Part shown: positions 14,851 through 28,694 of the stretch, in pieces
How positions within the stretch are numbered: position 1 is the first letter of the stretch
Layout: the number at the start of each line of letters is the position of its first letter
DNA from: a virus
Length of the DNA stretch: 35,428 bases
Direction: 5' to 3' (one strand)
IMG/VR virus record: IMGVR_UViG_3300021255_000003
Made by a program: the position numbers and the translations under genes
The notes under the pieces: model-generated
What the model was told of the DNA's origin: nothing
Seen by the model: only the letters and a program-made list of their open reading frames with translations
Databases searched by the model: none

Positions 14851-16338
14851 CTACTGTATAAAAGGACTATTTAATGGACTATTAAGCACATTGTCACTTA
14901 TTGGTGTAACTTCTGTTATTGTTAGATTATCCCATATAATATTAGCTGTTTGTTCTATATCAACATTACGAGTTATATATTCTCCACTCGATATGTTACC
15001 TTCACTTTTTCTTCTTTGATTGTCAAAATAATTAATTTCATTGTTTAAATTGAAAGTACTGGATAATTCATATTCGTAATTAATCAAACTAAATTCTCCA
15101 GCTTGTTTTATGTAAGTAGTTTTTTTCTTGACTAAATATTCTTTTTTTAAGTCATCTAGAGGAGCATTAAAAAAGGTTTTTGAACCTAATGTTAAAAAAT
15201 TGCTTGAGCTATTTATTTTTAATACAATTTCGGGATTGCTATATGTTTTTATGTAAGATTGTGCTACTTTATTAAGTTCATCTGCGTCCAAAATATCATC
15301 TCTGTTCTCATATCTTGTTATGGTTCCTTTTCTTTGTGTTTGATTATTTATTCTTAATATTTCAGAATTATTGATAATTAATTCTCTTCCTTTAATCAAT
15401 GGAGTATAATTAATAATAATTTGTGTACCTGCTGTATAAGAATCATTTTCATTATTTTCAAATGTATTTTTTCCTGCTTCATAATAAAAATCAAACTCTA
15501 TTCCAATTTCTTTATCTGCTTCTGTTCCTATTGTTTTTTCAATACCATTCACAGTAATGCTATTAATAACTCCTATATTACTTGAAGTAGAAAATGTTTT
15601 ATCATAACCATTAGCTATTATTGTTTCCACATAATCAACATTTCCATATACTTGACTACTCTTTATTATTTGTTTATTTCTATAATCATTAGTTGAATAC
15701 TCATACTTAATGTCATTTATTTTGTTTCTCTTAAAATAATCAGCAGTATATTCTAAGTTGATATTTTCCATTAAATAGTCAACATCATAAAAATCAATTG
15801 CTATTGTATTTTCATCAATTAATCTAGTAAACCAAACTGATTGAGATATTTCACTTAAATATTCAAATACATCGTATGGTGTTTTATCAAGTGTAGAATA
15901 AGCACCAATTATTGATGTTGTATCCTTTATATTGATATTTCCTATTACAAACCCATAACTAGATATTGAATCAATTACTTGCTCTATTGCTTCAGGTATC
16001 GTTTTGTTGTTTATAACATAATCTAATGTATCTGATTCACTTAAAAGAGTTGAATAATCTAATATTTGTAAACTACAATAATGTGGTTTTCTTGGATTTA
16101 ATACCATATTGCCACTATTTTTTACTATTCCAGCAAATACTAGTTCATCGTTGTCATATATTAAACATTTTGAATAATCTTTTGGAAAATAGAAATCGGT
16201 TAATAATTTGCTAGTTCCTTTCCATCTTTTAGGATATACTTTATCTAAAATAACTGAAGAAGGGTTTTTCAACTCTTCTTCAATTTTATAAGAACTATCG
16301 CAAATCACTTCTTCATTATCTATGAATATTTTATTCAC
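14851..16338 (-). CDS. Distal tail protein (Dit / siphovirus tail component)
   Basis: Immediately follows the TMP, with GTG overlapping the TMP stop. Size and position are typical. Confidence 0.65.
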   Translation of the reverse strand: MNKIFIDNEEVICDSSYKIEEELKNPSSVILDKVYPKRWKGTSKLLTDFYFPKDYSKCLIYDNDELVFAGIVKNSGNMVLNPRKPHYCSLQILDYSTLLSESDTLDYVINNKTIPEAIEQVIDSISSYGFVIGNINIKDTTSIIGAYSTLDKTPYDVFEYLSEISQSVWFTRLIDENTIAIDFYDVDYLMENINLEYTADYFKRNKINDIKYEYSTNDYRNKQIIKSSQVYGNVDYVETIIANGYDKTFSTSSNIGVINSITVNGIEKTIGTEADKEIGIEFDFYYEAGKNTFENNENDSYTAGTQIIINYTPLIKGRELIINNSEILRINNQTQRKGTITRYENRDDILDADELNKVAQSYIKTYSNPEIVLKINSSSNFLTLGSKTFFNAPLDDLKKEYLVKKKTTYIKQAGEFSLINYEYELSSTFNLNNEINYFDNQRRKSEGNISSGEYITRNVDIEQTANIIWDNLTITEVTPISDNVLNSPLNSPFIQ

Positions 16339-18212
16339 TATTTACCACCACCATAGTTAAATGAATTTTTGGTACCACCTGAAAATACTTTGATGTCATT
16401 AACAAAGGCTCTACCGAATTTATCTACATCCATATCAGCTTCTACATTTACATATATTGGTTGATTATTAGAAATATTTGGTGTTAGATTACCATACATA
16501 TTAGATACATTTACAGAACCATTTTTTAAGAAATCTAGGCCTATAGTATCTTCTATAGTCTTATGAAGTTCTTTTTCGTTTTCTTCAAATCCTTTTTCTA
16601 ATCCTAACATATTCATTTCTCCAACCCAATAAAATTCAGTTGATGGAGAATGTACTCCAAATATACTTTTAACCTTATTCATAATAGATTTGCCTATACC
16701 TGCTACTTTGTTTAATAACCATTGTTTGGCATTGGCAATACCATTCCATAAACCTTGGATAAGATTCTTACCTATATTTTCTATTCCACTTAATCCACTT
16801 CTTATTTTTGTTTTTACATTATTAGGAATACCTTTTACATTATTAAGTAACCAATTAACATTATTTTTAATACCATTCCATAAGCCTTTTATAGCATTAA
16901 TTCCTATCTCTAACCACATTCTAGGCATTGATTTCCAATAATTCATTATTGATTTGATTATTGTAGGAAGATATGCTAATAAGGTAGGAAGTGCTTGTAT
17001 TAAGCCTTGCATTATTCCTATAAGAAGTTGATATCCAGCTTGTATAAATAATGGTAAATTATCTATTAAAACAGGTATCATTTGTAGAATAGCGTCCACT
17101 ATTAATGGTATTAAAGTTGGCATTTCCTTAGCTAGTGCTTGAACTATCATAATACTTGCTTTTATCAAAGCTTGTAATAATTGTGGTAGTATTTTTACTA
17201 TACCTGTAAAAGCTTGTACTATTCCATTCATTAATACTGGTAATAGTGCTGGTAATGCTTGTACTAAACCATTTATTAAATCTATAGCTCCTTTTATTAT
17301 TACTGGTAATAATTTTTGCAATAATGGTGGTAATTCAGGAATTATTCCATTAACCAATCCTATTATTCCTTCAACTATTTTAGGAGCCATCTCTTCAATA
17401 GATTTTACTACAATTTTACTAAAACTCATTAAACTATCTATTACATCTTCTATGCTTCCTGCACCACTTAAAAAATTTGATATAGATGCTTTTAATGTAG
17501 TAAATGAACCAGCAAATGTTTCGTTTTCTTTAGCGTAGTTTCCTGCGTATTTAGATGTTTTTTCTAAAAACATTTGCATAGTAAGTTCTACTTTTTCAGC
17601 ATTTGTCATTTCACTAGTGCTCTTTTTTATACCTTTTGATAAAGCATAAGCATTAAGTGTTGTATCATTCATTGCAACACCTAAGTTATCCATCATCGTA
17701 AAGTTACCTTTTGCTGCTCCTGCAATACTTTCCATTGCTGCGTTAACATCTATTCCCATTACGGAAGCTACATCAGCAGCTCTTTGCATTGCGTCAGTAG
17801 ATAGGCTCATTGATTTTTCTACAGTTAATCCAGCACCTTGCATTAATGAACCCATTTTATTAGCAGTAGCTAAATAATCATTTTGTGAAAGACCCATTTT
17901 TTTGAATGCTTCAGTACCTTTTTTTTGTACTGTATCAGCAAACTTTTCAAAAACAGCTTCACTACCACCTAATTGTTGTTCTAATTCTCCAGCCATGCTA
18001 ACAGATTTCATTACTAATCCGCCTAATGCGGTACTTGCTGCACCTACACCTACAGCTAGGCCTTTGAATACAGTTGCACCTACAGATTTAATTTTATCTA
18101 AATGACCAGGTGTTTTTTTAGCTTCTTCATTTAGGTTTTTCATCCCTTTTTCAGAAGCATTACTATCCGTAGTGACTTTTAATCTTACTTCTGCATCATT
18201 CTTATTTATCAC
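16338..18212 (-). CDS. Tape measure protein
   Basis: 624 aa, Ala/Gly/Leu-rich helical with hydrophobic central repeats. Follows the chaperone genes. The start is ambiguous: GTG at 18212 or AAG at 18203. Confidence 0.85.
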   Translation of the reverse strand: MINKNDAEVRLKVTTDSNASEKGMKNLNEEAKKTPGHLDKIKSVGATVFKGLAVGVGAASTALGGLVMKSVSMAGELEQQLGGSEAVFEKFADTVQKKGTEAFKKMGLSQNDYLATANKMGSLMQGAGLTVEKSMSLSTDAMQRAADVASVMGIDVNAAMESIAGAAKGNFTMMDNLGVAMNDTTLNAYALSKGIKKSTSEMTNAEKVELTMQMFLEKTSKYAGNYAKENETFAGSFTTLKASISNFLSGAGSIEDVIDSLMSFSKIVVKSIEEMAPKIVEGIIGLVNGIIPELPPLLQKLLPVIIKGAIDLINGLVQALPALLPVLMNGIVQAFTGIVKILPQLLQALIKASIMIVQALAKEMPTLIPLIVDAILQMIPVLIDNLPLFIQAGYQLLIGIMQGLIQALPTLLAYLPTIIKSIMNYWKSMPRMWLEIGINAIKGLWNGIKNNVNWLLNNVKGIPNNVKTKIRSGLSGIENIGKNLIQGLWNGIANAKQWLLNKVAGIGKSIMNKVKSIFGVHSPSTEFYWVGEMNMLGLEKGFEENEKELHKTIEDTIGLDFLKNGSVNVSNMYGNLTPNISNNQPIYVNVEADMDVDKFGRAFVNDIKVFSGGTKNSFNYGGGK

Positions 18213-18684
18213 CTACCTTTTTTTCTAAATAGCCCCACATTTTTTCAAAAGCATTGGTATTTTGAATAATTGGTAGACTATACTTGTTTTTCATTTTCAT
18301 CATAAATCTATGTTTTTGTTCTTCTTGTGTTTTTATAGAACTAGAAGGTTTAGTATATGTTCTGTAATATAAAACTTTTGAAATAGTGGAATTGTCATCT
18401 AACATAAAGCCTTCTAGTAATGAATCAAATTCCCACCAGTCTATATCTTCTTTATTTAAGTTAAGTCCGAACTTCCAAAAATCAACGAAATAGTATTTGT
18501 AATCATAATTTAAATCAAAGTTTCTTTCTTTTAATGCTTTTCCACCATTCTGTGGATTAAACAAATATTTAGAAATTTCATTTAAAATATATCTTTGATT
18601 TTCTTTAATATCTAAACCTAAAAGCTCTAATGCTCTTTCACACTTATAAGGATTATCTTCTTCAAATAACTTGAATATTTTCAT
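18202..18684 (-). CDS. Tail assembly chaperone (Gp15-like)
   Basis: Position between MTP and TMP. N-terminal pattern resembles the bacteriophage Gp15 family. Confidence 0.6.
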   Translation of the reverse strand: MKIFKLFEEDNPYKCERALELLGLDIKENQRYILNEISKYLFNPQNGGKALKERNFDLNYDYKYYFVDFWKFGLNLNKEDIDWWEFDSLLEGFMLDDNSTISKVLYYRTYTKPSSSIKTQEEQKHRFMMKMKNKYSLPIIQNTNAFEKMWGYLEKKVGDK

Positions 18685-19231: not shown

Positions 19232-19681
19232 TTATGGTGTTGGTGCTACGTAGTCTGTTTCTGCAAAAGTAGAATTATCATATATTTTTAAATCAAAATC
19301 CACTTGTAAAACTTCTTCTGAATTTGCTTCATAAGTTATATTACTTAATGTTGCTGTAAAATCAATTTGTTTTCCGTTAGTACCTTTAAGTAAATTAACA
19401 ATTCTTGTTTTTACTGTTGCCTCTTCACCTACTGCAAATTCTTTACTTAAGATGAATTGACATACAGCACTTGATTTTTTCATTTTTACTGAAGTAGACC
19501 ATGTTGGGTCTAATCCAGTTTTAACGTTGTTTGATAAGAAAGAATATAAATCTTGCCATGTATCAAGTGATTCTCCCTGATCATAACTTAAATTTAGATT
19601 TATTACTTCTTCGTACTGTGCAGTACTAGTTGAACTTATATCGAACAATAATTTAAATTTATTAATTGAACTTTCGTACTT
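19232..19681 (-). CDS. Major tail protein; proposed AAG start at 19681
   Basis: Assigned by position. The track start is a TTG at 19648 with no SD. SD GGAG (19694-19691) plus 9 nt leads to an in-frame AAG. Confidence 0.6.
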   Translation of the reverse strand, partial: KYESSINKFKLLFDISSTSTAQYEEVINLNLSYDQGESLDTWQDLYSFLSNNVKTGLDPTWSTSVKMKKSSAVCQFILSKEFAVGEEATVKTRIVNLLKGTNGKQIDFTATLSNITYEANSEEVLQVDFDLKIYDNSTFAETDYVAPTP

Positions 19682-19683
19682 TA

Positions 19684-20070
19684 TTAATCACTCCATTCCA
19701 CTCTTAAATTACAATTAATATTGTAATAAATTCTTTGATTTTCGTCTCTAAAAGCATAGTTAGGTGTATTACATCTCATAAATGTAATATGTGTGTTATT
19801 TAATGATAAATCATTATTAAAGTGTAATTGATTAAATATTGTGTCAGCTAATCTACGTGTTTCAGTATCATTAGTGGTTCCTCTTATTAGAATATAAAAT
19901 GGTATTTCACTATAAAGAATATGTTGAGGTATAGAACTTTGATTTGTTCCTTCACCTAATTGAATAGCACAACATAATTCATCATTTTGAGGTAAATCTG
20001 GACTATAACATTTGATATTTGTTTTTTGTATTTCTGTTCGTAACAAAGTTACTAACTCTACGATATTCAT
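19684..20070 (-). CDS. Head-tail joining protein (Minor_capsid_3-like / gp17 position)
   Basis: ATG at 20070 with SD AAGAAGGGA; the track start at 20100 lies inside the upstream gene. Confidence 0.65.
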   Translation of the reverse strand: MNIVELVTLLRTEIQKTNIKCYSPDLPQNDELCCAIQLGEGTNQSSIPQHILYSEIPFYILIRGTTNDTETRRLADTIFNQLHFNNDLSLNNTHITFMRCNTPNYAFRDENQRIYYNINCNLRVEWSD

Positions 20071-21257: not shown

Positions 21258-22103
21258 TTAAGCATTTTTTACTTTTACGATTACAGCTTCTGCATTAGTC
21301 AATACATCTGTATAAACCATACGGCCTTGTAAAGCACTTGCACCAATGTGAGAACCATCTTTTAAGTCATTAATAGTTGGCTCTACTTTCCATTCGTCAA
21401 TTGCTTGTGTCCAGTCTACACCATAAACTATATATTCAACATTCTTATCGTTTTTGTCTTTTTCTAAATCTTGTACGATTACATTAACACCGTTGATTTT
21501 TCCAACAACACCATTTCGTGCTAATTCAGCACCAATTTGTGAAGCGGTATTTGAATATTTTTCATCAGTTAATAGTAGTGTTTCAGTTGCATAGTCTATA
21601 GCTACATACATTCTGTTTTTATCAATACCCTTTTTAGCTAATATAGCTATATCTTTTACAATATTTGAATATACGTTTTCAGCAGTTGAATCTTCTTGTG
21701 TTGATGGTGTACCACCTAATAAAGCTTCAATAGCATCAGCTTCTAATGTTTTAGCTACTGAATATGCTCCACTTTCTAGTCTTTGTGCTACTAAATTATC
21801 TGGCACTGCTTGTGCTTCATATCCATCGATTAATTCATTAATTGCTTTATGATTATCAACTGGGATATTTTTATAACTAGTTGCACTTTGAGATAAAGAT
21901 GCACCATCTTTTACATCATAATCATTAATTGCTACATCAGTATTTCTTACTGGTACTTTTACAGCTCCAGCTACTGGACTTCCTTCATAGTCTCTTGAAA
22001 ATGTATTTCTTATTTTTAGACTTGGTCTCATTAACTTAACAATTGCATTAGCAAATCTTTCTTGTCTTTCATGAGTACCATTTGTTCCGATTGCGTTTGC
22101 CTT
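21258..22103 (-). CDS. Major capsid protein; proposed AAG start at 22103 (track ORF starts at ATG 22031)
   Basis: 24 sense codons (KANAIGTNGTHERQERFANAIVKL) lie upstream of the track ATG with no canonical start. SD AAAAGGAG sits 9 nt before AAG, which follows TGA TGA TAA. Confidence 0.7.
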   Translation of the reverse strand, partial: KANAIGTNGTHERQERFANAIVKLMRPSLKIRNTFSRDYEGSPVAGAVKVPVRNTDVAINDYDVKDGASLSQSATSYKNIPVDNHKAINELIDGYEAQAVPDNLVAQRLESGAYSVAKTLEADAIEALLGGTPSTQEDSTAENVYSNIVKDIAILAKKGIDKNRMYVAIDYATETLLLTDEKYSNTASQIGAELARNGVVGKINGVNVIVQDLEKDKNDKNVEYIVYGVDWTQAIDEWKVEPTINDLKDGSHIGASALQGRMVYTDVLTNAEAVIVKVKNA

Positions 22104-22121
22104 TTATCATCACTCCTTTTC

Positions 22122-22649
22122 TTATTCTTTAAAGGCATCAGGATGTTTGGCTTTTAATATAGCCATAACTCCATCTTCTTCAGTATTTTTTATTTTTGTT
22201 ACTGCTACTCCTGTTGTTTTAGGATTGGCTGTAACTTCTTCTCTTTGAAGATATTTAGGATTTTCTTTTAAGAAATTCTCAAGGTTTTCTTCAAATTCAC
22301 CTTCCATTTTTGAAACTTTAAATAGGACATAATCAACATCATCAGCATTTACACCACTTCTAAGAACTTGATTCTCTTTTTTTAAAGAATCTCTTTCACT
22401 AGTAGTGGAAGCTAAGTTTTGTGTCAATTCTGTTTGCTTTTCAGTTTCAGTTTTCTGACTTTCTTCCCATTCTTTATATTTTTGTAAGTCAACACCTTCA
22501 TATTTTTTATTTAATTTATTTGTTTCTTTTAATATCATTGCGTTGACTTCATCTTGAGTAAAAGTCTTTTCAGTTTTTTCAACAGGTTCTGTAACTGTCC
22601 CCTCAGTTTTTTCTTCAGGCTGAGTAACTGGTTCTTGTTTATTTTCCAT
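22122..22649 (-). CDS. Scaffolding protein
   Basis: Acidic coiled-coil 175 aa directly upstream of the capsid gene. SD GGAGG. Confidence 0.8.
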   Translation of the reverse strand: MENKQEPVTQPEEKTEGTVTEPVEKTEKTFTQDEVNAMILKETNKLNKKYEGVDLQKYKEWEESQKTETEKQTELTQNLASTTSERDSLKKENQVLRSGVNADDVDYVLFKVSKMEGEFEENLENFLKENPKYLQREEVTANPKTTGVAVTKIKNTEEDGVMAILKAKHPDAFKE

Positions 22650-22953: not shown

Positions 22954-22968
22954 TAATAAAAAAAATTT

Positions 22969-23046
22969 AGGAGGTAGGACTCGCACTATCCCTACATCTC
23001 TTTTGACCCAAAGGGTGCGTGGACGCAAGATTTTTCCACCTCTCCT
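22969..23046 (-). ncRNA. 78-nt cloverleaf-shaped structured RNA candidate
   Basis: AGGAG/CUCCU closing stem, GUGGA/UCCAC arm, ACCC-UUU-GGGU arm, GUAGG/CCUAC arm containing GUGCGAGUCC (T-loop-like). Followed by AAA-U8. Confidence 0.35.
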
Positions 23047-23058
23047 GTAATTATTATA

Positions 23059-24702
23059 CTACTTATTATCATTTTTATCAAAGATTTTTTTAATTTTGCC
23101 ATTTTTTTCGTAATTATCTATTCTTTGTTGTTTTAGTATCTGCATTTGAATTATTGAATTTTTATAACCTTTTTCTTTTTCGGTGGCATTAGGTGTATTT
23201 AATTTTAATGTTATTTTTACATTGTCTTCCATTTGTTTAACTATCCACAATGTATCATCTTTATCTAGTTGTTTATAAACATAATCTGGTTTTTTTAATA
23301 TATTTGGTATTTCGCTTTGATATTTTAGAACTTCGGGATGCTTTTGTAGATGTTCTAATCTATCAGGCATCAACACAACATCTTTTGTTGTTGTAACTAA
23401 TTGTTTGTCATATTTCGCAGCGTCAAATTTACCTACGATACTTTTGTTTACTATTTCCTCTTGTTTTTTTCTTTTTTCTTCTTTTTTTATCCAATTGTTC
23501 AATTGATTCGTAGTTTTTTCTTTGACTGGTTGTGATACTACTTTCGTTCCTATCCACTCATTACCATAATCTCTATATCTATCAGTTTCTTTTAGCCAAC
23601 TATTATATTGACTATTAAAACTACTTAATTGTTTTTGTTTTGATTTTATGTAATCAGGTTCTGCTCCTGTTTCCTTTAGCATTTCTATTTCTCTTTTTTT
23701 ATTTCTTATTTGTCTTTCGTAGTATCTTTGTGTTTGTCTTTCTTGATATGCTTCATCGTTTTCTGCTTTGTCTATTTCTTTTTCTCTATGGATGCTTAAA
23801 TTTGGTATAAAAGCATATCTTGAATGTCCACAATTGATACCTAATATACCAGCAGGCTCTCCATAAGAAGATTGGCTCCACGCATATACTTTAATCTTAT
23901 TTCCTAAACCATCTTCAATAGGTGTAGTATCATCATTTAAAGAAAATATCTTACCTTGGTCTTCTGCACATAATGGTCTAGCTCCCATGTGTTGAGATAT
24001 TTCTACATAGTTATTTCCTGCTAGTTGCATTCTTTCCTCTTGTATTTTATTAGTTGTTTGTCTAGTGTTTGTTCTTAGTACCATTTTAGTATAAGCTTCA
24101 GGGCTCCATTGTGCTCCATTCCTTGCTGTAAAACCTGTTAAACCTTTTTCTGCTAGTTTTGTGACTGCGTCTTGCATTGCTTTTGTTACAGTCTTTGTGC
24201 CAGCCATTACTTCATTAGATACTTTATTTACTATATTTGTATATTCTCTTCCAGCACTTGTTAATAGGCTATTATTTTGTTTATTAAAAGTTGTTAATGT
24301 TTCGTTTATAGCATTACTTATTACATTTTTTACTACTATATCTTCAACTACTGGATTAATCTCATTTAGTATTCCTGCTTTTACTCCTAATTCTAGTTGT
24401 TCTTTATCTACTTCTGTTCCTATCTCTCTAGCTCTTTCAAATATCTTTTCAATATCTTTTTTTGATTTTTTGCTATATTTAGCTATTATTTTAGCATTCT
24501 CTTTAGTTAATCCACCTAACTCTTTTAATCGTTCTAGTTGCCATTCATTTACACCACCAGAACCTACAATTGGTGAATTAGTTTCTAAACTCCATTTATC
24601 TATTTCCATAGGTTTATCTACTGCTATTTTTTTAGCAATATTTAGAAGAAGTTCATTCTCCATATCGATATAATATCTTTCTACTTGTTCTTCTAAAGAC
24701 AT
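23059..24702 (-). CDS. MuF/SPP1 gp7-family minor head protein fused to a C-terminal PBECR-type (Barnase-EndoU-ColicinE5/D-RelE-like) nuclease domain
   Basis: Position after the portal. The C-terminal ~110 aa (DRLEHLQKHPE...ILKKPDYVY...WIV...ITLKLN....GYKNSII) matches my recollection of PBECR domains. Confidence 0.7.
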   Translation of the reverse strand: MSLEEQVERYYIDMENELLLNIAKKIAVDKPMEIDKWSLETNSPIVGSGGVNEWQLERLKELGGLTKENAKIIAKYSKKSKKDIEKIFERAREIGTEVDKEQLELGVKAGILNEINPVVEDIVVKNVISNAINETLTTFNKQNNSLLTSAGREYTNIVNKVSNEVMAGTKTVTKAMQDAVTKLAEKGLTGFTARNGAQWSPEAYTKMVLRTNTRQTTNKIQEERMQLAGNNYVEISQHMGARPLCAEDQGKIFSLNDDTTPIEDGLGNKIKVYAWSQSSYGEPAGILGINCGHSRYAFIPNLSIHREKEIDKAENDEAYQERQTQRYYERQIRNKKREIEMLKETGAEPDYIKSKQKQLSSFNSQYNSWLKETDRYRDYGNEWIGTKVVSQPVKEKTTNQLNNWIKKEEKRKKQEEIVNKSIVGKFDAAKYDKQLVTTTKDVVLMPDRLEHLQKHPEVLKYQSEIPNILKKPDYVYKQLDKDDTLWIVKQMEDNVKITLKLNTPNATEKEKGYKNSIIQMQILKQQRIDNYEKNGKIKKIFDKNDNK

Positions 24703-24719
24703 TTATATCACCACCTATT

Positions 24720-25031
24720 TTAATTAAAAAAATTTTTACAAACATCATGTATCATATCATGGCTTTTACTACTTAAATCACATAATATTTCTTCATTATA
24801 ATTTATTTCATCTGATAAATAAGACCAGATATAACAATGCATTAATTCGTGATACAAAGTTTCTTTTTGCTTTTCTTTTGATACTTCTTTATTGATTAAT
24901 ATTTGTTGAGTGCTTAATTTTGTTGCACCATAATAATAACTATTTTCATTATTATCATTAAATACTTTTTTTACTTCATCAGCTGTTGCATAATCAATTG
25001 TCCAATTGTAATTATTCATTTTGAAGTTCAT
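24720..25031 (-). CDS. Small HExxH metallopeptidase-like protein (103 aa)
   Basis: YHELMHCY motif. SD AAGGAG plus 7 nt, then ATG at 25031; the track start at 25058 lies inside the portal gene. Confidence 0.55.
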   Translation of the reverse strand: MNFKMNNYNWTIDYATADEVKKVFNDNNENSYYYGATKLSTQQILINKEVSKEKQKETLYHELMHCYIWSYLSDEINYNEEILCDLSSKSHDMIHDVCKNFFN

Positions 25032-26475
25032 TTGCATTCTCCTTATCACCCATACCATAGAAATCTATTCCTTCAGGTGTAATTATTTTATTATCTTCTT
25101 TTATTTTTTCTATCTCATCTGTTACTTCTGCTTCTTCATAATGTAAATATTTAGTCATGAACTTTTCTTTACTTATTAAACCAGCATTATATAGATTAAT
25201 TCCACGATTAATTAGTGCTTCCTCATCTTGTATAATACTATCATCAAATGTAATAGATATTTCTTTATACTTAATACCTTCCATTTCACATATAGTTGCT
25301 ATTAAATCATATAAAGCATTGTATATTGGAATTTGGTGTTGAGATTTAGTCCTAAATGTATCACTATTTTCACTAACTACTTCAGTAGCAGTTTTTAATC
25401 CATCTTTATCAAATGAATAAAAATCATTACCTAATCTTACACCAGCACTTAAGTATTTTAATTCAGTATTAATGGCTTCTATATATTCATTTCTTAGACT
25501 AAAGTCTATTTCTTTTACTGGTTGATTTTCCATTCCTTCTAGTGCTACATATATGTCATCAGAGGTATCAAAATAACTAGCATAAATGATATTGTTGTTA
25601 TCATCTACTCCTGTAGCTTTCTTTTTAACCGCACTTCTATCTACTAATATTCTTCTTCTACCACTTACATATTCGTGGTCAAATCCATCATATTTAATAT
25701 CTATTGCTTTAAATTTATCTAAATGATTAGCAAGTATTGATAATCCCATTGGGCTACCTGTATCAAAGTTATTTGCTATTGGTAATCTCCATACTTGGAA
25801 TCTTGGATGTTCTGTTTCTATTACTTCATCTTCTTCAATATCAGGATATAATGTAGAAACATCTATTGCTTTTCCTAATGTATTTTCACTTTTTGATTTA
25901 TATAATTCAGTTGCTTTTTTATATTCTCCATTATCATATTCATGATAAGTTAGTAATGTATAATATATTTTCTTATTTTCAGTACCTTCTACTGTTCGTG
26001 ATACTGTTATTATTCCATTTATATACGAATTAGTATATTTATATGGTAAAACAACATCTCCATCTATATAATCTACAATTGTTTTGTCATCCTTTTTATA
26101 TTCAACAGTAACCATCGTACCGTAGGCATATTCTTTTTCTAGAAATGGTAAAAAATTAGTACTAAAACTATTTTCTTTACTATCTAACACATCCCATAAC
26201 TTTTTAGTATTCTTTTTGTTGTCTAATTTTATTTCTGCTCTTTCACTCCATAATAGATTAGAAAAATCTTCACATATTTTCTTTGGCATATTTAAAGTTT
26301 TTCTTTCAACTAAACATTCCTTACCATCAACCAATTTAGCCTTATAGTAGTGAAAATCATTTACACTACCTCTGTAATATTGGTGACAAATTGCCATCAT
26401 ATCATATATAGTTCCTACTACTACGTTGATATTTTTTTTACTTAGTACTTGTTGAATATTATTGTATAGTTCCTT
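25012..26475 (-). CDS. Portal protein (SPP1 gp6-like); proposed AAG start at 26475 (track ORF starts at ATG 26400)
   Basis: The frame is open from TGA at 26505-26503. Strong SD AAAGGTGGTG plus 5 nt leads to AAG. No ATG/GTG/TTG for 25 codons. TAAAG overlap with the upstream stop. Confidence 0.75.
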   Translation of the reverse strand, partial: KELYNNIQQVLSKKNINVVVGTIYDMMAICHQYYRGSVNDFHYYKAKLVDGKECLVERKTLNMPKKICEDFSNLLWSERAEIKLDNKKNTKKLWDVLDSKENSFSTNFLPFLEKEYAYGTMVTVEYKKDDKTIVDYIDGDVVLPYKYTNSYINGIITVSRTVEGTENKKIYYTLLTYHEYDNGEYKKATELYKSKSENTLGKAIDVSTLYPDIEEDEVIETEHPRFQVWRLPIANNFDTGSPMGLSILANHLDKFKAIDIKYDGFDHEYVSGRRRILVDRSAVKKKATGVDDNNNIIYASYFDTSDDIYVALEGMENQPVKEIDFSLRNEYIEAINTELKYLSAGVRLGNDFYSFDKDGLKTATEVVSENSDTFRTKSQHQIPIYNALYDLIATICEMEGIKYKEISITFDDSIIQDEEALINRGINLYNAGLISKEKFMTKYLHYEEAEVTDEIEKIKEDNKIITPEGIDFYGMGDKENANELQNE

Positions 26476-26666
26476 TAAATCACCACCTTTTGAATTGTTA
26501 TTTCAGGAACAGAATCAATACTACCTGAAAAATCAATTGCTTTGACGCCTTTAACTAGGTTCCCTTTTTCAAAAACTTCAATTTTTTTGTCATTTACTAT
26601 AATAACTAAATCGCTATCAACAAACTTCTTTGCAATTTCAGTTACTTTCTCCAAAGTTTCTAACAT
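26475..26666 (-). CDS. Small hypothetical protein between terL and portal
   Basis: Track ORF. SD AAAGGAG plus 7 nt, then ATG. Confidence 0.65.
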   Translation of the reverse strand: MLETLEKVTEIAKKFVDSDLVIIVNDKKIEVFEKGNLVKGVKAIDFSGSIDSVPEITIQKVVI

Positions 26667-26670
26667 ATTA

Positions 26671-28035
26671 TCACTCCTTTATACCTAATTTTCTTAAATT
26701 ATCTTTTACCCAATATTGGTATAAATCACAAGTATGATCTGCATAGTAATAACTTATATCATTTGAATAAGTGTTAAAGTATTCTTCTCCACCTGTAAAT
26801 TCCTTTTCATTTTTATCAGGTATAGGTTTACCCTTTTCAACACTACCTTCTAACCATTGATAATTTTCTATTTCTTTTTTTACTATTTTGTTATTATTGT
26901 TATTAATTATTCTTATTTTGCCTTTGCTTAAAAAAGTTATTGAATAATCTACTAATTCTTCTTTGTCTCTACCTTTATTTACAGGATTAAATCTCTTACC
27001 ATAATCCGAATATAATTGATTTCTTAATGCTCCTTCAGCACTATCTATTGTTTCTCTATCAAGACTAGTTTTATATTTTTTTAACATCGCTATTTCAAAA
27101 TTGAATATATCTTTGGATAATTCCGATGGTGCTCTCTTTTTTGATTTTTCGTGTGGACTATAGTAATAGGTGTCTAACCAATACCAATATCCATCACTTC
27201 CATAGCCGAAACATCCGCATGTGGTAGCACTTGTTTGATGACCACCATCAGCTGAAAAGTCCATATATAATATCCGTACGTTGTTTTTATCTATATAATC
27301 TTCTTCTACCCATTCAAATTGTTCAGGATTATATATCATTCCTTCTAATCCTATTACTTCACCTAAATATATCCATCTATATCTTTTAATATCAAATTGT
27401 TTTATTCTTTCAGCCTCTTCAATTGCGATTCTTCCTATCCATTCTACAGGAACAGTTCTATAGTCACTTAAAGAATATAAAACATTATCTTGTTTTTGTT
27501 TTTCAATAGCCCATTTATTAACCCAATGATATTTATTCTTTGGTGGATTATATGAATATAAAGCCATAAACCAATCATTATTTCCACGTGTAAATGTTGC
27601 TATAATTTGGTCTATATCTTCTGAATTTTTCCATCCTGTCAATTCTTCAAACCAAACTATTTTTATTAATTTGTTTTCATCAATTGTTCCTTTTACTGCT
27701 TCATAATCGTCTCCACCAGCAAAATATATTGTGTTTCCATTAGAAAAAAAAGTTATTTCCATTGGTGCTAATTTTGCTTTATAGTGTATGTTTTCAATTA
27801 ATCCTAATCTTCTGCAGGCTCTTTTAATTTCTTTGTATACTGATTTTCTTAAATCTACTTGGTGTTTTCTTAATACTACTGCAGAACAGTCATTTTCTTT
27901 TATGCAGTTGTATACTATCTTTAAAGAAATCATAGATGTTTTAGTTGAATTTCTTCCTCCTGCATATATCTGATGTGTTTTGTGACTTTTAAATGTTCTT
28001 CTAAAAGAAGGAGCTATTTGAGTACTAATCTTCAT
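26671..28035 (-). CDS. terL: Terminase large subunit (PBSX/Terminase_3 family)
   Basis: N-terminal ATPase pattern (YAGGRNSTKTS Walker A-like). Size and position fit. Confidence 0.9.
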   Translation of the reverse strand: MKISTQIAPSFRRTFKSHKTHQIYAGGRNSTKTSMISLKIVYNCIKENDCSAVVLRKHQVDLRKSVYKEIKRACRRLGLIENIHYKAKLAPMEITFFSNGNTIYFAGGDDYEAVKGTIDENKLIKIVWFEELTGWKNSEDIDQIIATFTRGNNDWFMALYSYNPPKNKYHWVNKWAIEKQKQDNVLYSLSDYRTVPVEWIGRIAIEEAERIKQFDIKRYRWIYLGEVIGLEGMIYNPEQFEWVEEDYIDKNNVRILYMDFSADGGHQTSATTCGCFGYGSDGYWYWLDTYYYSPHEKSKKRAPSELSKDIFNFEIAMLKKYKTSLDRETIDSAEGALRNQLYSDYGKRFNPVNKGRDKEELVDYSITFLSKGKIRIINNNNNKIVKKEIENYQWLEGSVEKGKPIPDKNEKEFTGGEEYFNTYSNDISYYYADHTCDLYQYWVKDNLRKLGIKE

Positions 28036-28417
28036 CTGCTTCAGGTAAATCGTCTATGATTTCAACTCTATTATTAACGGTGCCATCAAATTCTTGTTTA
28101 GTGCTAAATTCATCTTTGGCTTTTCTCTCTAAATACCATTTAGCCATTTCTTTGTCTCCTTTATCTAGAGCTTTATGAACAGCCATTCTTGCCTTTATTT
28201 TTTCGTATTCTTTTAGCATATTAATTCTCTCTAAAAATTCAGGGTATTCAGCTAAATATGCATAAAAAGTAGATTCACGAACATCGGCAAAAAAACACGC
28301 TTCACGATTAGTACACCCCATCATAAAAGCTTCTTCTAATTTTTGTAGTTCTTTTTCTCCTATTGCTCTTGGTCTACCTACTTGATTTCCATTATCTTTT
28401 TTCTTTTTTCTTTTCTT
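28025..28417 (-). CDS. terS: Terminase small subunit; start ambiguous (AAG at 28417 after SD GAAGGTGG, or GTG at 28426 inside the SD)
   Basis: Basic N-terminus plus HTH-like GRPRAIGEKELQKLEEAFMMGCTNREA. Overlaps the terL start. Confidence 0.75.
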   Translation of the reverse strand, partial: KKRKKKKDNGNQVGRPRAIGEKELQKLEEAFMMGCTNREACFFADVRESTFYAYLAEYPEFLERINMLKEYEKIKARMAVHKALDKGDKEMAKWYLERKAKDEFSTKQEFDGTVNNRVEIIDDLPEADED

Positions 28418-28440
28418 TGATACCACCTTCTTACTTTAAA

Positions 28441-28514
28441 TGGTAGCGGATGTTGGATTTGCACCACTCCACAGGCTAAAGAGACCTGTATGCTACTATT
28501 ACACTACACCCGCG
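28441..28514 (-). tRNA. Initiator-tRNA-like gene with anticodon CUU (non-canonical T and D arms), encoded ACCA 3' end
   Basis: 5'-CGCGGGUGUAGUGUAAUAGUAGCAUACAGGUCUCUUUAGCCUGUGGAGUGGUGCAAAUCCAACAUCCGCUACCA-3'. 7 acceptor pairs plus a C1xU72 mismatch. Anticodon arm CAGGU-CUCUUUA-GCCUG. Hand-folded only. Confidence 0.5.
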
Positions 28515-28541
28515 ATAAATAAAACTGCCTAATATAGGCAG
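28515..28541 (-). terminator. Rho-independent terminator (CTGCCTA-TAT-TAGGCAG plus TTTTATTT)
   Basis: Perfect 7-bp stem. The U-tract ends at the first base of the tRNA-like gene. Confidence 0.7.
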
Positions 28542-28694
28542 CCCACTAAGAAAAACAATTGTTTATATTCCCTAATCCACATCAAGAATATTTGCCTTGC
28601 ACCAGTAAAGGATAGATATAGTTATTATTTAATTCTTTCTGCATTCTAATAAAGGAGGTGCGTTTTGAAAGAATACTATAGCAAGGTTCCCACT

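Follow-up and report, generated by a model that had tools for sequence, protein, structure and literature searches.

Where does translation of the major capsid gene begin in the viral DNA recorded as IMG/VR virus record IMGVR_UViG_3300021255_000003? This stretch of 35,428 nucleotides (nt), which is called the window below, belongs to a temperate siphovirus that encodes a CI-like repressor, a serine integrase, Erf, and a replication initiator and whose late operon is located on the minus strand. Among the late genes, the scaffold open reading frame (ORF; 22649..22122, minus strand) closes with TAA, after which the minus strand reads GAAAAGGAGTGATGATAA and then AAG GCA AAC GCA ATC. The sole ATG near the capsid start (22110-22108) lies in another frame, where it begins an ORF of 13 codons (MIKGKRNRNKWYS, then a stop). 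The capsid frame itself runs TGA TGA TAA AAG GCA AAC, and from the AAG (22103-22101), it encodes an N-terminal extension, KANAIGTNGTHERQERFANAIVKL, that leads to the first in-frame ATG (22031, M25). This ATG has no Shine-Dalgarno (SD) sequence, and ORF finders start there. Rereading of the sequence bore out what the initial annotation had described, namely, the stop-rich frame ahead of the AAG, the out-of-frame ATG, and the upstream GGAG. As argued below, a phage-encoded initiator tRNA with an altered anticodon probably decodes AAG starts that are private to late virion genes.

Start codons of the capsid gene and other late genes

The capsid gene as proposed (21258..22103, minus strand) has 281 codons from AAG, while gene callers report 257 amino acids (aa) from ATG 22031. 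Its translation start region (22101..22116, minus strand) consists of the SD GGAGTGAT (22116-22109, with GGAG at 22116-22113), the spacer GATAA, and AAG at 22103-22101. The product belongs to PHROG 267 (major head protein), and the profile match opens at residue 14, within the extension. The GGAGTGAT sequence occurs four times on the minus strand (0.37 copies expected; 0 of 100 shuffles reach four), each time 3 to 5 nt ahead of a start position; two of the copies precede the capsid and tail AAG, and the remaining two precede ordinary ATG starts. If AAG is the start, then the capsid N terminus would be (f)K-ANAIGTNGTHER, i.e., (f)Lys-Ala-Asn.

A search of 5.8 billion proteins with the capsid protein yielded 1,928 relatives. 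The majority of those listed are ~281 aa long and open with M-ANAIGTNGTHERQERY (M-ANAIG(T/N)NGTHERQERY), which is the window extension with M replacing K; some are annotated as ~257-aa proteins beginning with MRPSLKIR, as in the window. At the DNA level, the codon at residue 1 was read in 51 related loci, whose capsids are 47 to 84% identical to that of the window. It is ATG in one set of loci, AAG in another (~20 related phages), and AGG in L008 and L029 (L numbers denote related contigs). Loci with AAG or AGG starts are referred to as ARG-type, and those with ATG (or GTG) as ATG-type or canonical-type. Among unique capsid genes, AAG or AGG is found in 22 and ATG in 30. The alignment with related major capsid proteins, which the initial annotation had proposed, places their ATG on the AAG of the window and so supports a capsid start at the AAG located 9 nt past GGAG.

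No upstream start is conserved in the AAG/AGG set, as exemplified by GGAGAGTGATTTAA-AAG, GGAGAGTGATGATTA-AAG, and GGAGAGTGATTAAGT-AGG, and an in-frame stop is usually located one to three codons upstream. Some relatives lack the A-run at the capsid start, and upstream GTGs are found in differing frames. Since the relatives have no upstream ATG, the out-of-frame ATG of the window is incidental, and an indel or a frameshift is not a general answer; the AAAA/AAA indel considered as an alternative in the initial annotation fails on these grounds. The European Nucleotide Archive (ENA), Logan, and NCBI assembly records (n = 3), which may share read sets, are identical over the site. We conclude that the AAG-start observation at the capsid gene is real and not a sequencing error.

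The ratio of nonsynonymous to synonymous substitution rates (dN/dS) for codons 2 to 24 was 0.26 in 16 gap-free AAG/AGG-type genes and 0.25 in 12 ATG-type genes; for codons 25 to 47, it was 0.21 and 0.17, respectively. Arg16 is encoded by AGA, CGT, or CGC. These values indicate that codons 2 to 24 are under purifying selection, i.e., that the extension is translated, in line with the earlier suggestion that the 24-codon extension is a genuine N terminus. The capsids of L021, L110, and L111 lack Met25, and 122 codons pass in L021 before a canonical start is reached; Met25 is an internal residue of ATG-type proteins and is conserved there to the same degree. A phage collection yielded no cultured relative, the capsid having a single match there, at 37% identity. 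Some capsid homologues (P0006, P0008, P0009, and others) are ~385 aa long and carry a C-terminal extension of ~105 residues that is absent in the window. The second AGG capsid, in L008 (4921-5013), is located at a contig end near a CRISPR-repeat-like sequence (RF01335, subthreshold) and a 767-aa reverse ORF, and its upstream side lacks a late operon; L008 may be a remnant or a chimeric contig.

To find starts of this kind in all loci, we scanned for GGAG followed after 6 to 11 nt by the first codon of an ORF spanning 80 codons or more, on condition that no canonical start fell between the upstream stop and five codons into the ORF. The scan returned 29 AAG and 2 AGG codons, all in ARG-type loci and located at small terminase (terS), portal, capsid, tail, and tape-measure-like genes. 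The remaining codons were, for the most part, neighbors of those sites; the four exceptions were in L030 and L045, which are not ARG-type. In the window, the AAG starts of the portal, capsid, and tail genes are clear-cut, and the terS and tape-measure calls rest on homology, an in-frame GTG being located inside each SD. Extended SD sites precede all four AAG genes of the window (terS, portal, capsid, and tail).

In the major tail gene (19232..19694, minus strand), the SD GGAGTGAT (19694-19687) is followed by the spacer TAATA and AAG at 19681-19679. The spacing from GGAG to AAG is the same as in the capsid gene (GGAGTGAT-TAATA-AAG versus GGAGTGAT-GATAA-AAG), which confirms the resemblance first pointed out in the initial annotation. 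From the AAG, it takes 11 codons to reach a canonical start (TTG 19648); in the tail ORFs of L002 and L049, ATG, GTG, and TTG are absent altogether. When tail genes are aligned, ATG-type L020 has ATG in the AAG column, and L029 has AGG there. The portal gene (25012..26489, minus strand; Pfam SPP1_portal) has the SD AAGGTGGTGAT (26489-26479) and the junction AAGGTGGTGATTTA-AAG; its AAG (26475-26473) shares one base with the TAA that closes a 63-aa ORF (26665..26475), and its first canonical start, ATG 26400, is 25 codons downstream. The corresponding junction reads TAA-AAG in relatives, with ATG or GTG taking the place of AAG in ATG-type ones. Initiation at AAG would give the N termini K-YESSINK for the tail protein and K-ELYNNIQ for the portal protein.

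The product of terS (28025..28430, minus strand) matches the PHROG 4102 terminase small subunit (E = 1.3e-22). The proposed AAG (28417-28415) follows the SD AAGGTGGTAT (28429-28420) at the junction AAGGTGGTATCA-AAG, and the GTG chosen by the ORF finder (28426) falls within the SD. Homologues read ..GGTGGTATC(G)A-AAG, some with an in-frame stop right before, and L029 reads ..GGTGGTATCTA-AGG. Tentatively, the tape-measure gene may be a fifth case (18201..18224, minus strand; GGTAGGTGATAAAT, AAG at 18203-18201). Its ORF (16338..18212) is called from GTG 18212, inside the SD, and the base at position −1 is T; a tape-measure-like ORF in L005 reads GAGGAGGTGACGTAA-AAG.

The tRNA gene upstream of terS

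An initiator-like tRNA with the anticodon CUU (28481-28479) is encoded at 28441..28514 on the minus strand (CGCGGGTGTAGTGTAATAGTAGCATACAGGTCTCTTTAGCCTGTGGAGTGGTGCAAATCCAACATCCGCTACCA), 23 nt upstream of the terS AAG and ~6.4 kb upstream of the capsid start. It is 74 nt long and has a C1xU72 mismatch, followed by G2-C71 and C3-G70; G29-C41, G30-C40, and U31.G39 in the anticodon stem; the anticodon loop CUCUUUA (U37); A73; and an encoded CCA. Of these, the 1:72 mismatch, G2-C71, C3-G70, G30-C40, A73, and the CCA end typify bacterial initiator tRNAs. A permissive Rfam scan detected it at 28513-28445 (38.6 bits versus a gathering score of 29). ARAGORN reported no tRNA in the window and likewise missed the L011, L013, and L049 members; it did find a CTT tRNA in AAG-type L017 and a CCT tRNA in AGG-type L029, both just upstream of terS. 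Additional copies of the tRNA are present in 14 other contigs. An Rfam scan at gathering thresholds returned no tRNA from 12 ARG-type loci, since the tRNA falls beyond their 6-kb flanks. Scanning viral contigs for the junction irrespective of anticodon (GCAACCA-N-GGAGGTGGTAT) returned known members and chance matches only, and a scan for the anticodon arm returned one new member, L194, the rest being chance matches.

A terminator-like hairpin with a T-run (28522..28544, minus strand) ends 7 nt upstream of the tRNA 5′ end, and relatives have similar hairpin/T-run and TATAT contexts ahead of the tRNA. The hairpin is likely the boundary between the early/middle and late transcription units. Members of the 74-nt subfamily (the window, L011, L013, L017, L049, L058, and L059) carry one additional base that separates the acceptor stem from the D stem, and only three to four of their T-stem pairs are good; the G after position 7 could pair with C65 in an 8/4-like arrangement. 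This structure may be why ARAGORN missed several of them.

Bacterial initiator tRNAs have no Watson-Crick pair at 1:72 (C1xA72 in Escherichia coli), and this mismatch together with 2:71 and 3:70 determines recognition by the formylase; of the three GC pairs of the anticodon stem, the middle one, G30-C40, is essential and sufficient, and natural au/GC/gu variants have G:U as the third pair (PMC5389676). We aligned 17 sequences, including E. coli tRNAfMet, and counted pairs on the cloverleaf. Pairing was found in 91.5% of the cloverleaf cells, with compensatory changes at 13 pairs, and none of 500 shuffles matched this. No standard pair is present at 1:72 in any of the 17 tRNAs (C1xU72 is also found in L159, a bona fide CAU initiator), and G2-C71, C3-G70, and G30-C40 are invariant in all of them. 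The 29:41 pair is G-C or A-U across the alignment, and all 15 phage tRNAs with a non-CAU anticodon share U.G at 31:39. The CAU anticodon and methionine identity of tRNAfMet are replaced by CUU in the window, CCU in L029, and GCA in L120 and L121. Of the features expected of an elongator tRNA-Lys(CUU), a paired 1:72 and a purine at position 37 (t6A) are absent from the CUU tRNAs, and similarity to tRNA-Lys is absent among the E. coli matches listed for the L029 and L111 tRNAs.

The 77-nt CUU variants of L111 to L114 resemble tRNAfMet with the loop CUCUUUA in place of CUCAUAA. Over its full length, the L111 tRNA (CUU) is 80.5% identical to E. coli tRNA-Met genes (~4 places per genome, E = 3e-10), and the L029 tRNA (CCU) is 74% identical to such genes (also ~4 places per genome). 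Among the E. coli matches listed for these two tRNAs, all are annotated as tRNA-Met and none as tRNA-Lys or tRNA-Arg. The L029 match that was inspected belongs to a tandem array of three tRNA-Met genes flanked by mltA and amiC, an array that we take to be the metZWV initiator operon. The window tRNA is connected to this group only stepwise, being 76% identical to the L118 tRNA, which is 83% identical to that of L113, which, in turn, is 81% identical to E. coli tRNAfMet. Matches of the tRNA body in the phage collection are tRNA-Met wherever annotated; of four fecal scaffolds without annotation that were read, three have CAU.

The same slot upstream of terS contains tRNA genes in ATG-type relatives as well (L003 636-712, L133 7840-7916, L145 7717-7793, and L132 7824-7898). 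These tRNAs either have CAU with U1-A72 and a ..AGT-CTCATAA-GCT.. anticodon arm or are Gln(UUG)-like. The CUU form may have been derived from a CAU tRNA in this slot by A35U and A37U substitutions.

Anticodons, start codons, and competing explanations

Loci with AAG at the portal start always have AAG at the capsid and tail starts, and terS is alike where the junction is readable. In L029/L119, AGG is found at the portal, capsid, and tail starts and, by direct reading, at terS, and the anticodon is CCU. ATG-type loci have ATG or GTG at all these starts. When the count is limited to unique portals that are preceded by 2.6 kb of sequence or more, a cognate initiator-like tRNA is present in 11 of 11 ARG-type loci (10 CUU/AAG and 1 CCU/AGG) and in 0 of 25 canonical-type loci. 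The ARG state requires three changes on the portal tree, where it forms nearly one clade, versus eight on the capsid tree; the start codon thus tracks the phage backbone rather than the capsid gene. This indicates that capsid genes moved between backbones and that their start codon was reset to the resident tRNA. A metagenome scan for AGG-type capsid starts returned two contigs, both too short to hold the tRNA.

Two features of the sequence context also distinguish ARG-type starts. Calculated with an assumed anti-SD sequence, the SD:anti-SD duplex is stronger in ARG-type than in canonical-type loci across the family, both at the portal (−13.3 versus −10.5 kcal/mol, p = 7e-8) and at the capsid gene (−15.5 versus −12.1 kcal/mol, p = 3e-5); within the window, the values are −13.5 kcal/mol for AAG starts versus −9.3 kcal/mol (p = 0.009). 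The base at position −1 is A in 52 of 53 unique AAG contexts versus 29 of 58 before ATG. In the window, this position corresponds to 22104, 19682, 26476, and 28418 (capsid, tail, portal, and terS, respectively). The bias suggests an extra fourth base pair between A(−1) and U37, A-AAG:CUU-U37.

Variant tRNAs were also seen outside the AAG and AGG loci. The slot upstream of terS in L120 (1823-1896) and L121 (1029-1102) contains a tRNA with the anticodon GCA and an A1xA72 or G1xA72 mismatch. In the same contigs, an 874-codon tape-measure-like ORF begins GGAGGGGATGCTGA-TGC (L120, 12437; L121, 11618), with no canonical start for 56 to 72 codons and an out-of-frame ATG one base upstream of TGC; the tape-measure N termini are too divergent to align TGC with any ATG. 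Tentatively, GCA/UGC may be a third pair of anticodon and start codon. A human fecal phage scaffold (L174, MT835577.1) encodes at 2871-2947 an initiator tRNA that has a canonical body (C1xA72 and three GC pairs), the loop CTCAAAA, and the anticodon CAA, which is cognate to UUG; initiator tRNAs with variant anticodons may thus exist beyond this phage group.

One could suppose that the host tRNAfMet reads AAG and AGG inefficiently as near-cognates, aided by a strong SD, and that the phage tRNA supplements elongation. The unusually strong SDs fit such reading, and a supplementary role is in keeping with the codon-supply tRNAs that phages often carry, with the 115 internal AAG codons of the window, and with the other tRNAs found in the terS slot of relatives. 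Second-position mismatches, to which AAG and AGG belong, rank, however, with the least efficient near-cognates when assayed in E. coli, even though the proteins concerned are the most abundant ones of the virion. AGG starts are found exactly where the anticodon is CCU, and the nearly invariant A at −1 matches U37. An elongator role is also at odds with the unpaired 1:72 of all 17 tRNAs, which disfavors binding by the elongation factor EF-Tu, and with tRNA bodies whose matches are to tRNAfMet and not to tRNA-Lys or tRNA-Arg. We consider this explanation improbable.

Less probable still is that initiation at AAG and AGG is permitted by a trait of the host lineage, e.g., an altered initiation factor IF3 or a variant host initiator tRNA in uncultured gut Bacillota. 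ARG-type prophages do come mainly from metagenome-assembled genomes of “uncultured Bacilli/Tenericutes,” Candidatus Onthousia, and Candidatus Coprosoma. However, each ARG-type phage with upstream sequence has its own matching tRNA, and a general relaxation leaves unexplained the use of AGG throughout in one phage and AAG throughout in others.

It is very unlikely that the capsid starts at ATG 22031 (MRPSLKIR) behind an untranslated leader of 24 codons, although Met25 is conserved in most homologues and all automatic annotations of the clade use it (P0001, P0020, P0061, and others). Besides lacking an SD, this start leaves unexplained why the 23 codons upstream of it evolve with the dN/dS of ATG-type genes and why the PHROG match begins inside the extension; Met25 is equally kept where it is internal and is missing from the capsids of L021, L110, and L111, and two tail ORFs (L002 and L049) have no canonical start to fall back on. 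As ways to restore ATG-ATA-AAG-GCA, a sequencing or assembly indel (AAAA instead of AAA) and a programmed +1 shift, slippage, or hop that departs from ATG 22110 can practically be dismissed: deletion of one A does put ATG 22110 in frame, but the three assembly records agree, relatives (GGAGAGTGATTTAA-AAG and ..TTAAGT-AGG) have no upstream ATG, have GTGs in different frames, and in some cases lack the A-run, and three more genes of the window have AAG without any such ATG.

Two further candidates were rejected. Read-through from the scaffold gene, which is in the same frame in the window, would have to pass four stops, and the frames differ in relatives. As for stop-codon recoding (codes 4 or 15), long ORFs are intact under code 11, and neither ARAGORN nor Rfam found a suppressor tRNA.

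Several observations weigh against decoding of AAG by a dedicated phage initiator, an argument that is built on sequence throughout. ARG-type phages form approximately one portal clade, so the 11 of 11 versus 0 of 25 count does not represent independent events, and the AGG/CCU pairing comes from a single phage contig. Ordinary-looking tRNAs fill the terS slot in ATG-type relatives, and the presence of a tRNA there is therefore not special by itself. The duplex energies depend on the anti-SD sequence assumed. The strict signature of three GC pairs (29:41, 30:40, and 31:39) is absent, with U31.G39 being reversed in orientation relative to the natural G:U variants. U37, found in every CUU tRNA where tRNAfMet has A37, is unusual at a position that is normally a purine. 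The 74-nt tRNA of the window has itself diverged (U11:A24, one additional base following the acceptor stem, and a T stem that is weak); it gave no blastn match to E. coli tRNAs and is tied to tRNAfMet through intermediates only. Lysyl-tRNA is a poor substrate for the E. coli formylase. Last, AAG is used by only some late genes.

Mechanism, precedents, and neighboring features

Canonical starts are missing, AAG is homologous to ATG, the extension is under selection, the tRNA has initiator features, and anticodon and start codon match across phages. From these observations, we infer lysine charging, formylation, P-site use, and a regulatory purpose, as follows. The late operon would open with an initiator tRNA whose anticodon shifted from CAU to CUU. 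Late transcription would pass the hairpin (28544-28522), and the tRNA, as the first product of the late transcript, would then be cut out. The host lysyl-tRNA synthetase probably charges it with lysine, as expected from its CUU anticodon and A73, both of which are identity elements for lysine. The charged tRNA is probably formylated, taken by initiation factor IF2, and rejected by EF-Tu, as expected from the unpaired 1:72 and the retained G2-C71 and C3-G70. In the P site, it would pair with AAG 3 to 5 nt past the extended SD, so that Lys at AAG, and not a downstream ATG, would be the start of the terS and portal proteins as well as the major proteins of the capsid and tail (the tape measure perhaps included). 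Efficient synthesis of these virion proteins would then occur only when the phage tRNA is present. Possible purposes include silence of virion genes in the lysogen, timing or a private channel of late translation, escape from attack on or competition for tRNAfMet, and defense against satellites or piracy.

Overall, it is likely that natural reassignment of the start codons of virion genes took place in a lineage of temperate phages of the gut and rumen, by means of an orthogonal initiator tRNA (CUU, with CCU in a sister phage and possibly GCA/UGC). The first residue of these virion proteins would then be Lys or Arg, and the tRNA would gate their synthesis.

Anticodon mutants of the initiator tRNA from E. 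coli start translation at cognate non-AUG codons (PMC11744186); precedents cited in that paper include Varshney and RajBhandary 1990 and Drabkin and RajBhandary 1998, the latter with AAG in mammalian cells. Engineered initiators (tRNAfMet CUA reading UAG, panels of 31 anticodons, and orthogonal i-tRNA) share with the phage tRNA the initiator body, a non-CAU anticodon, and a cognate start after an SD, and their first residue is dictated by the new anticodon, as would be expected here. They are, however, laboratory constructs, while the phage pair is natural, restricted to late genes, and coevolved (CUU/AAG, CCU/AGG, U37 with A at −1, and stronger SDs). The CAU initiators encoded by phages (L071, L103, L104, and L159) likewise have a 1:72 mismatch, the GCAACCA end, and often U31.G39; they keep CAU and read AUG, whereas here the anticodon is CUU or CCU, and the downstream genes have lost ATG.

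Borges et al. reportedly described, in 2022, gut phages that recode stop codons and encode suppressor tRNAs of their own. There, likewise, a phage tRNA alters the decoding of late or lytic genes and plausibly times their translation, but recoding works during elongation and on stop codons, whereas the system in the window would work at initiation and on a sense codon. Natural GUG and UUG starts and the AUU start of infC are also non-AUG codons after an SD, and a weak start can be regulatory. They differ from AUG at position 1 or 3 and have no dedicated tRNA, while AAG and AGG differ at position 2 and are accompanied by a cognate tRNA.

Full-text searches of the searchable literature returned engineered anticodon-mutant initiators only and no natural AAG or AGG starts with a dedicated tRNA in prokaryotes or phages. 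If the proposed decoding is true, then this would be, as far as could be found, the first natural orthogonal translation-initiation system. It would also be a natural exception, in a virus, to the rule that bacterial initiation uses tRNAfMet at AUG, GUG, or UUG, a new layer of phage control in which translation of late genes is licensed by a tRNA, and a natural template for orthogonal initiation in synthetic biology. For annotation, the consequence in this clade is that capsid, portal, and tail proteins in databases are short by 11 to 25 residues and that several of the tRNAs are missed by ARAGORN.

Two other features are located in the late region of the window. The gene for minor capsid protein 2 (23059-24702, minus strand; PF06152, E = 2e-76) has a weak C-terminal match to the PBECR2 nuclease-like domain (E = 1e-4, below the cutoff). 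Between the minor-capsid and scaffold genes, at 22966-23049 (minus strand), there is a skipping-rope RNA (Rfam RF02924, 55.3 bits versus a gathering score of 36.7), which is also present in L017 (5149-5233) and L049 (5150-5234). In some relatives, its slot contains a tRNA gene, either tRNA-Trp (L003 and L015) or tRNA-Pro (L110, L113, and L114); in L003 and L110, where the flanks were read, a T-rich run ending in TAT is located ahead of the tRNA.

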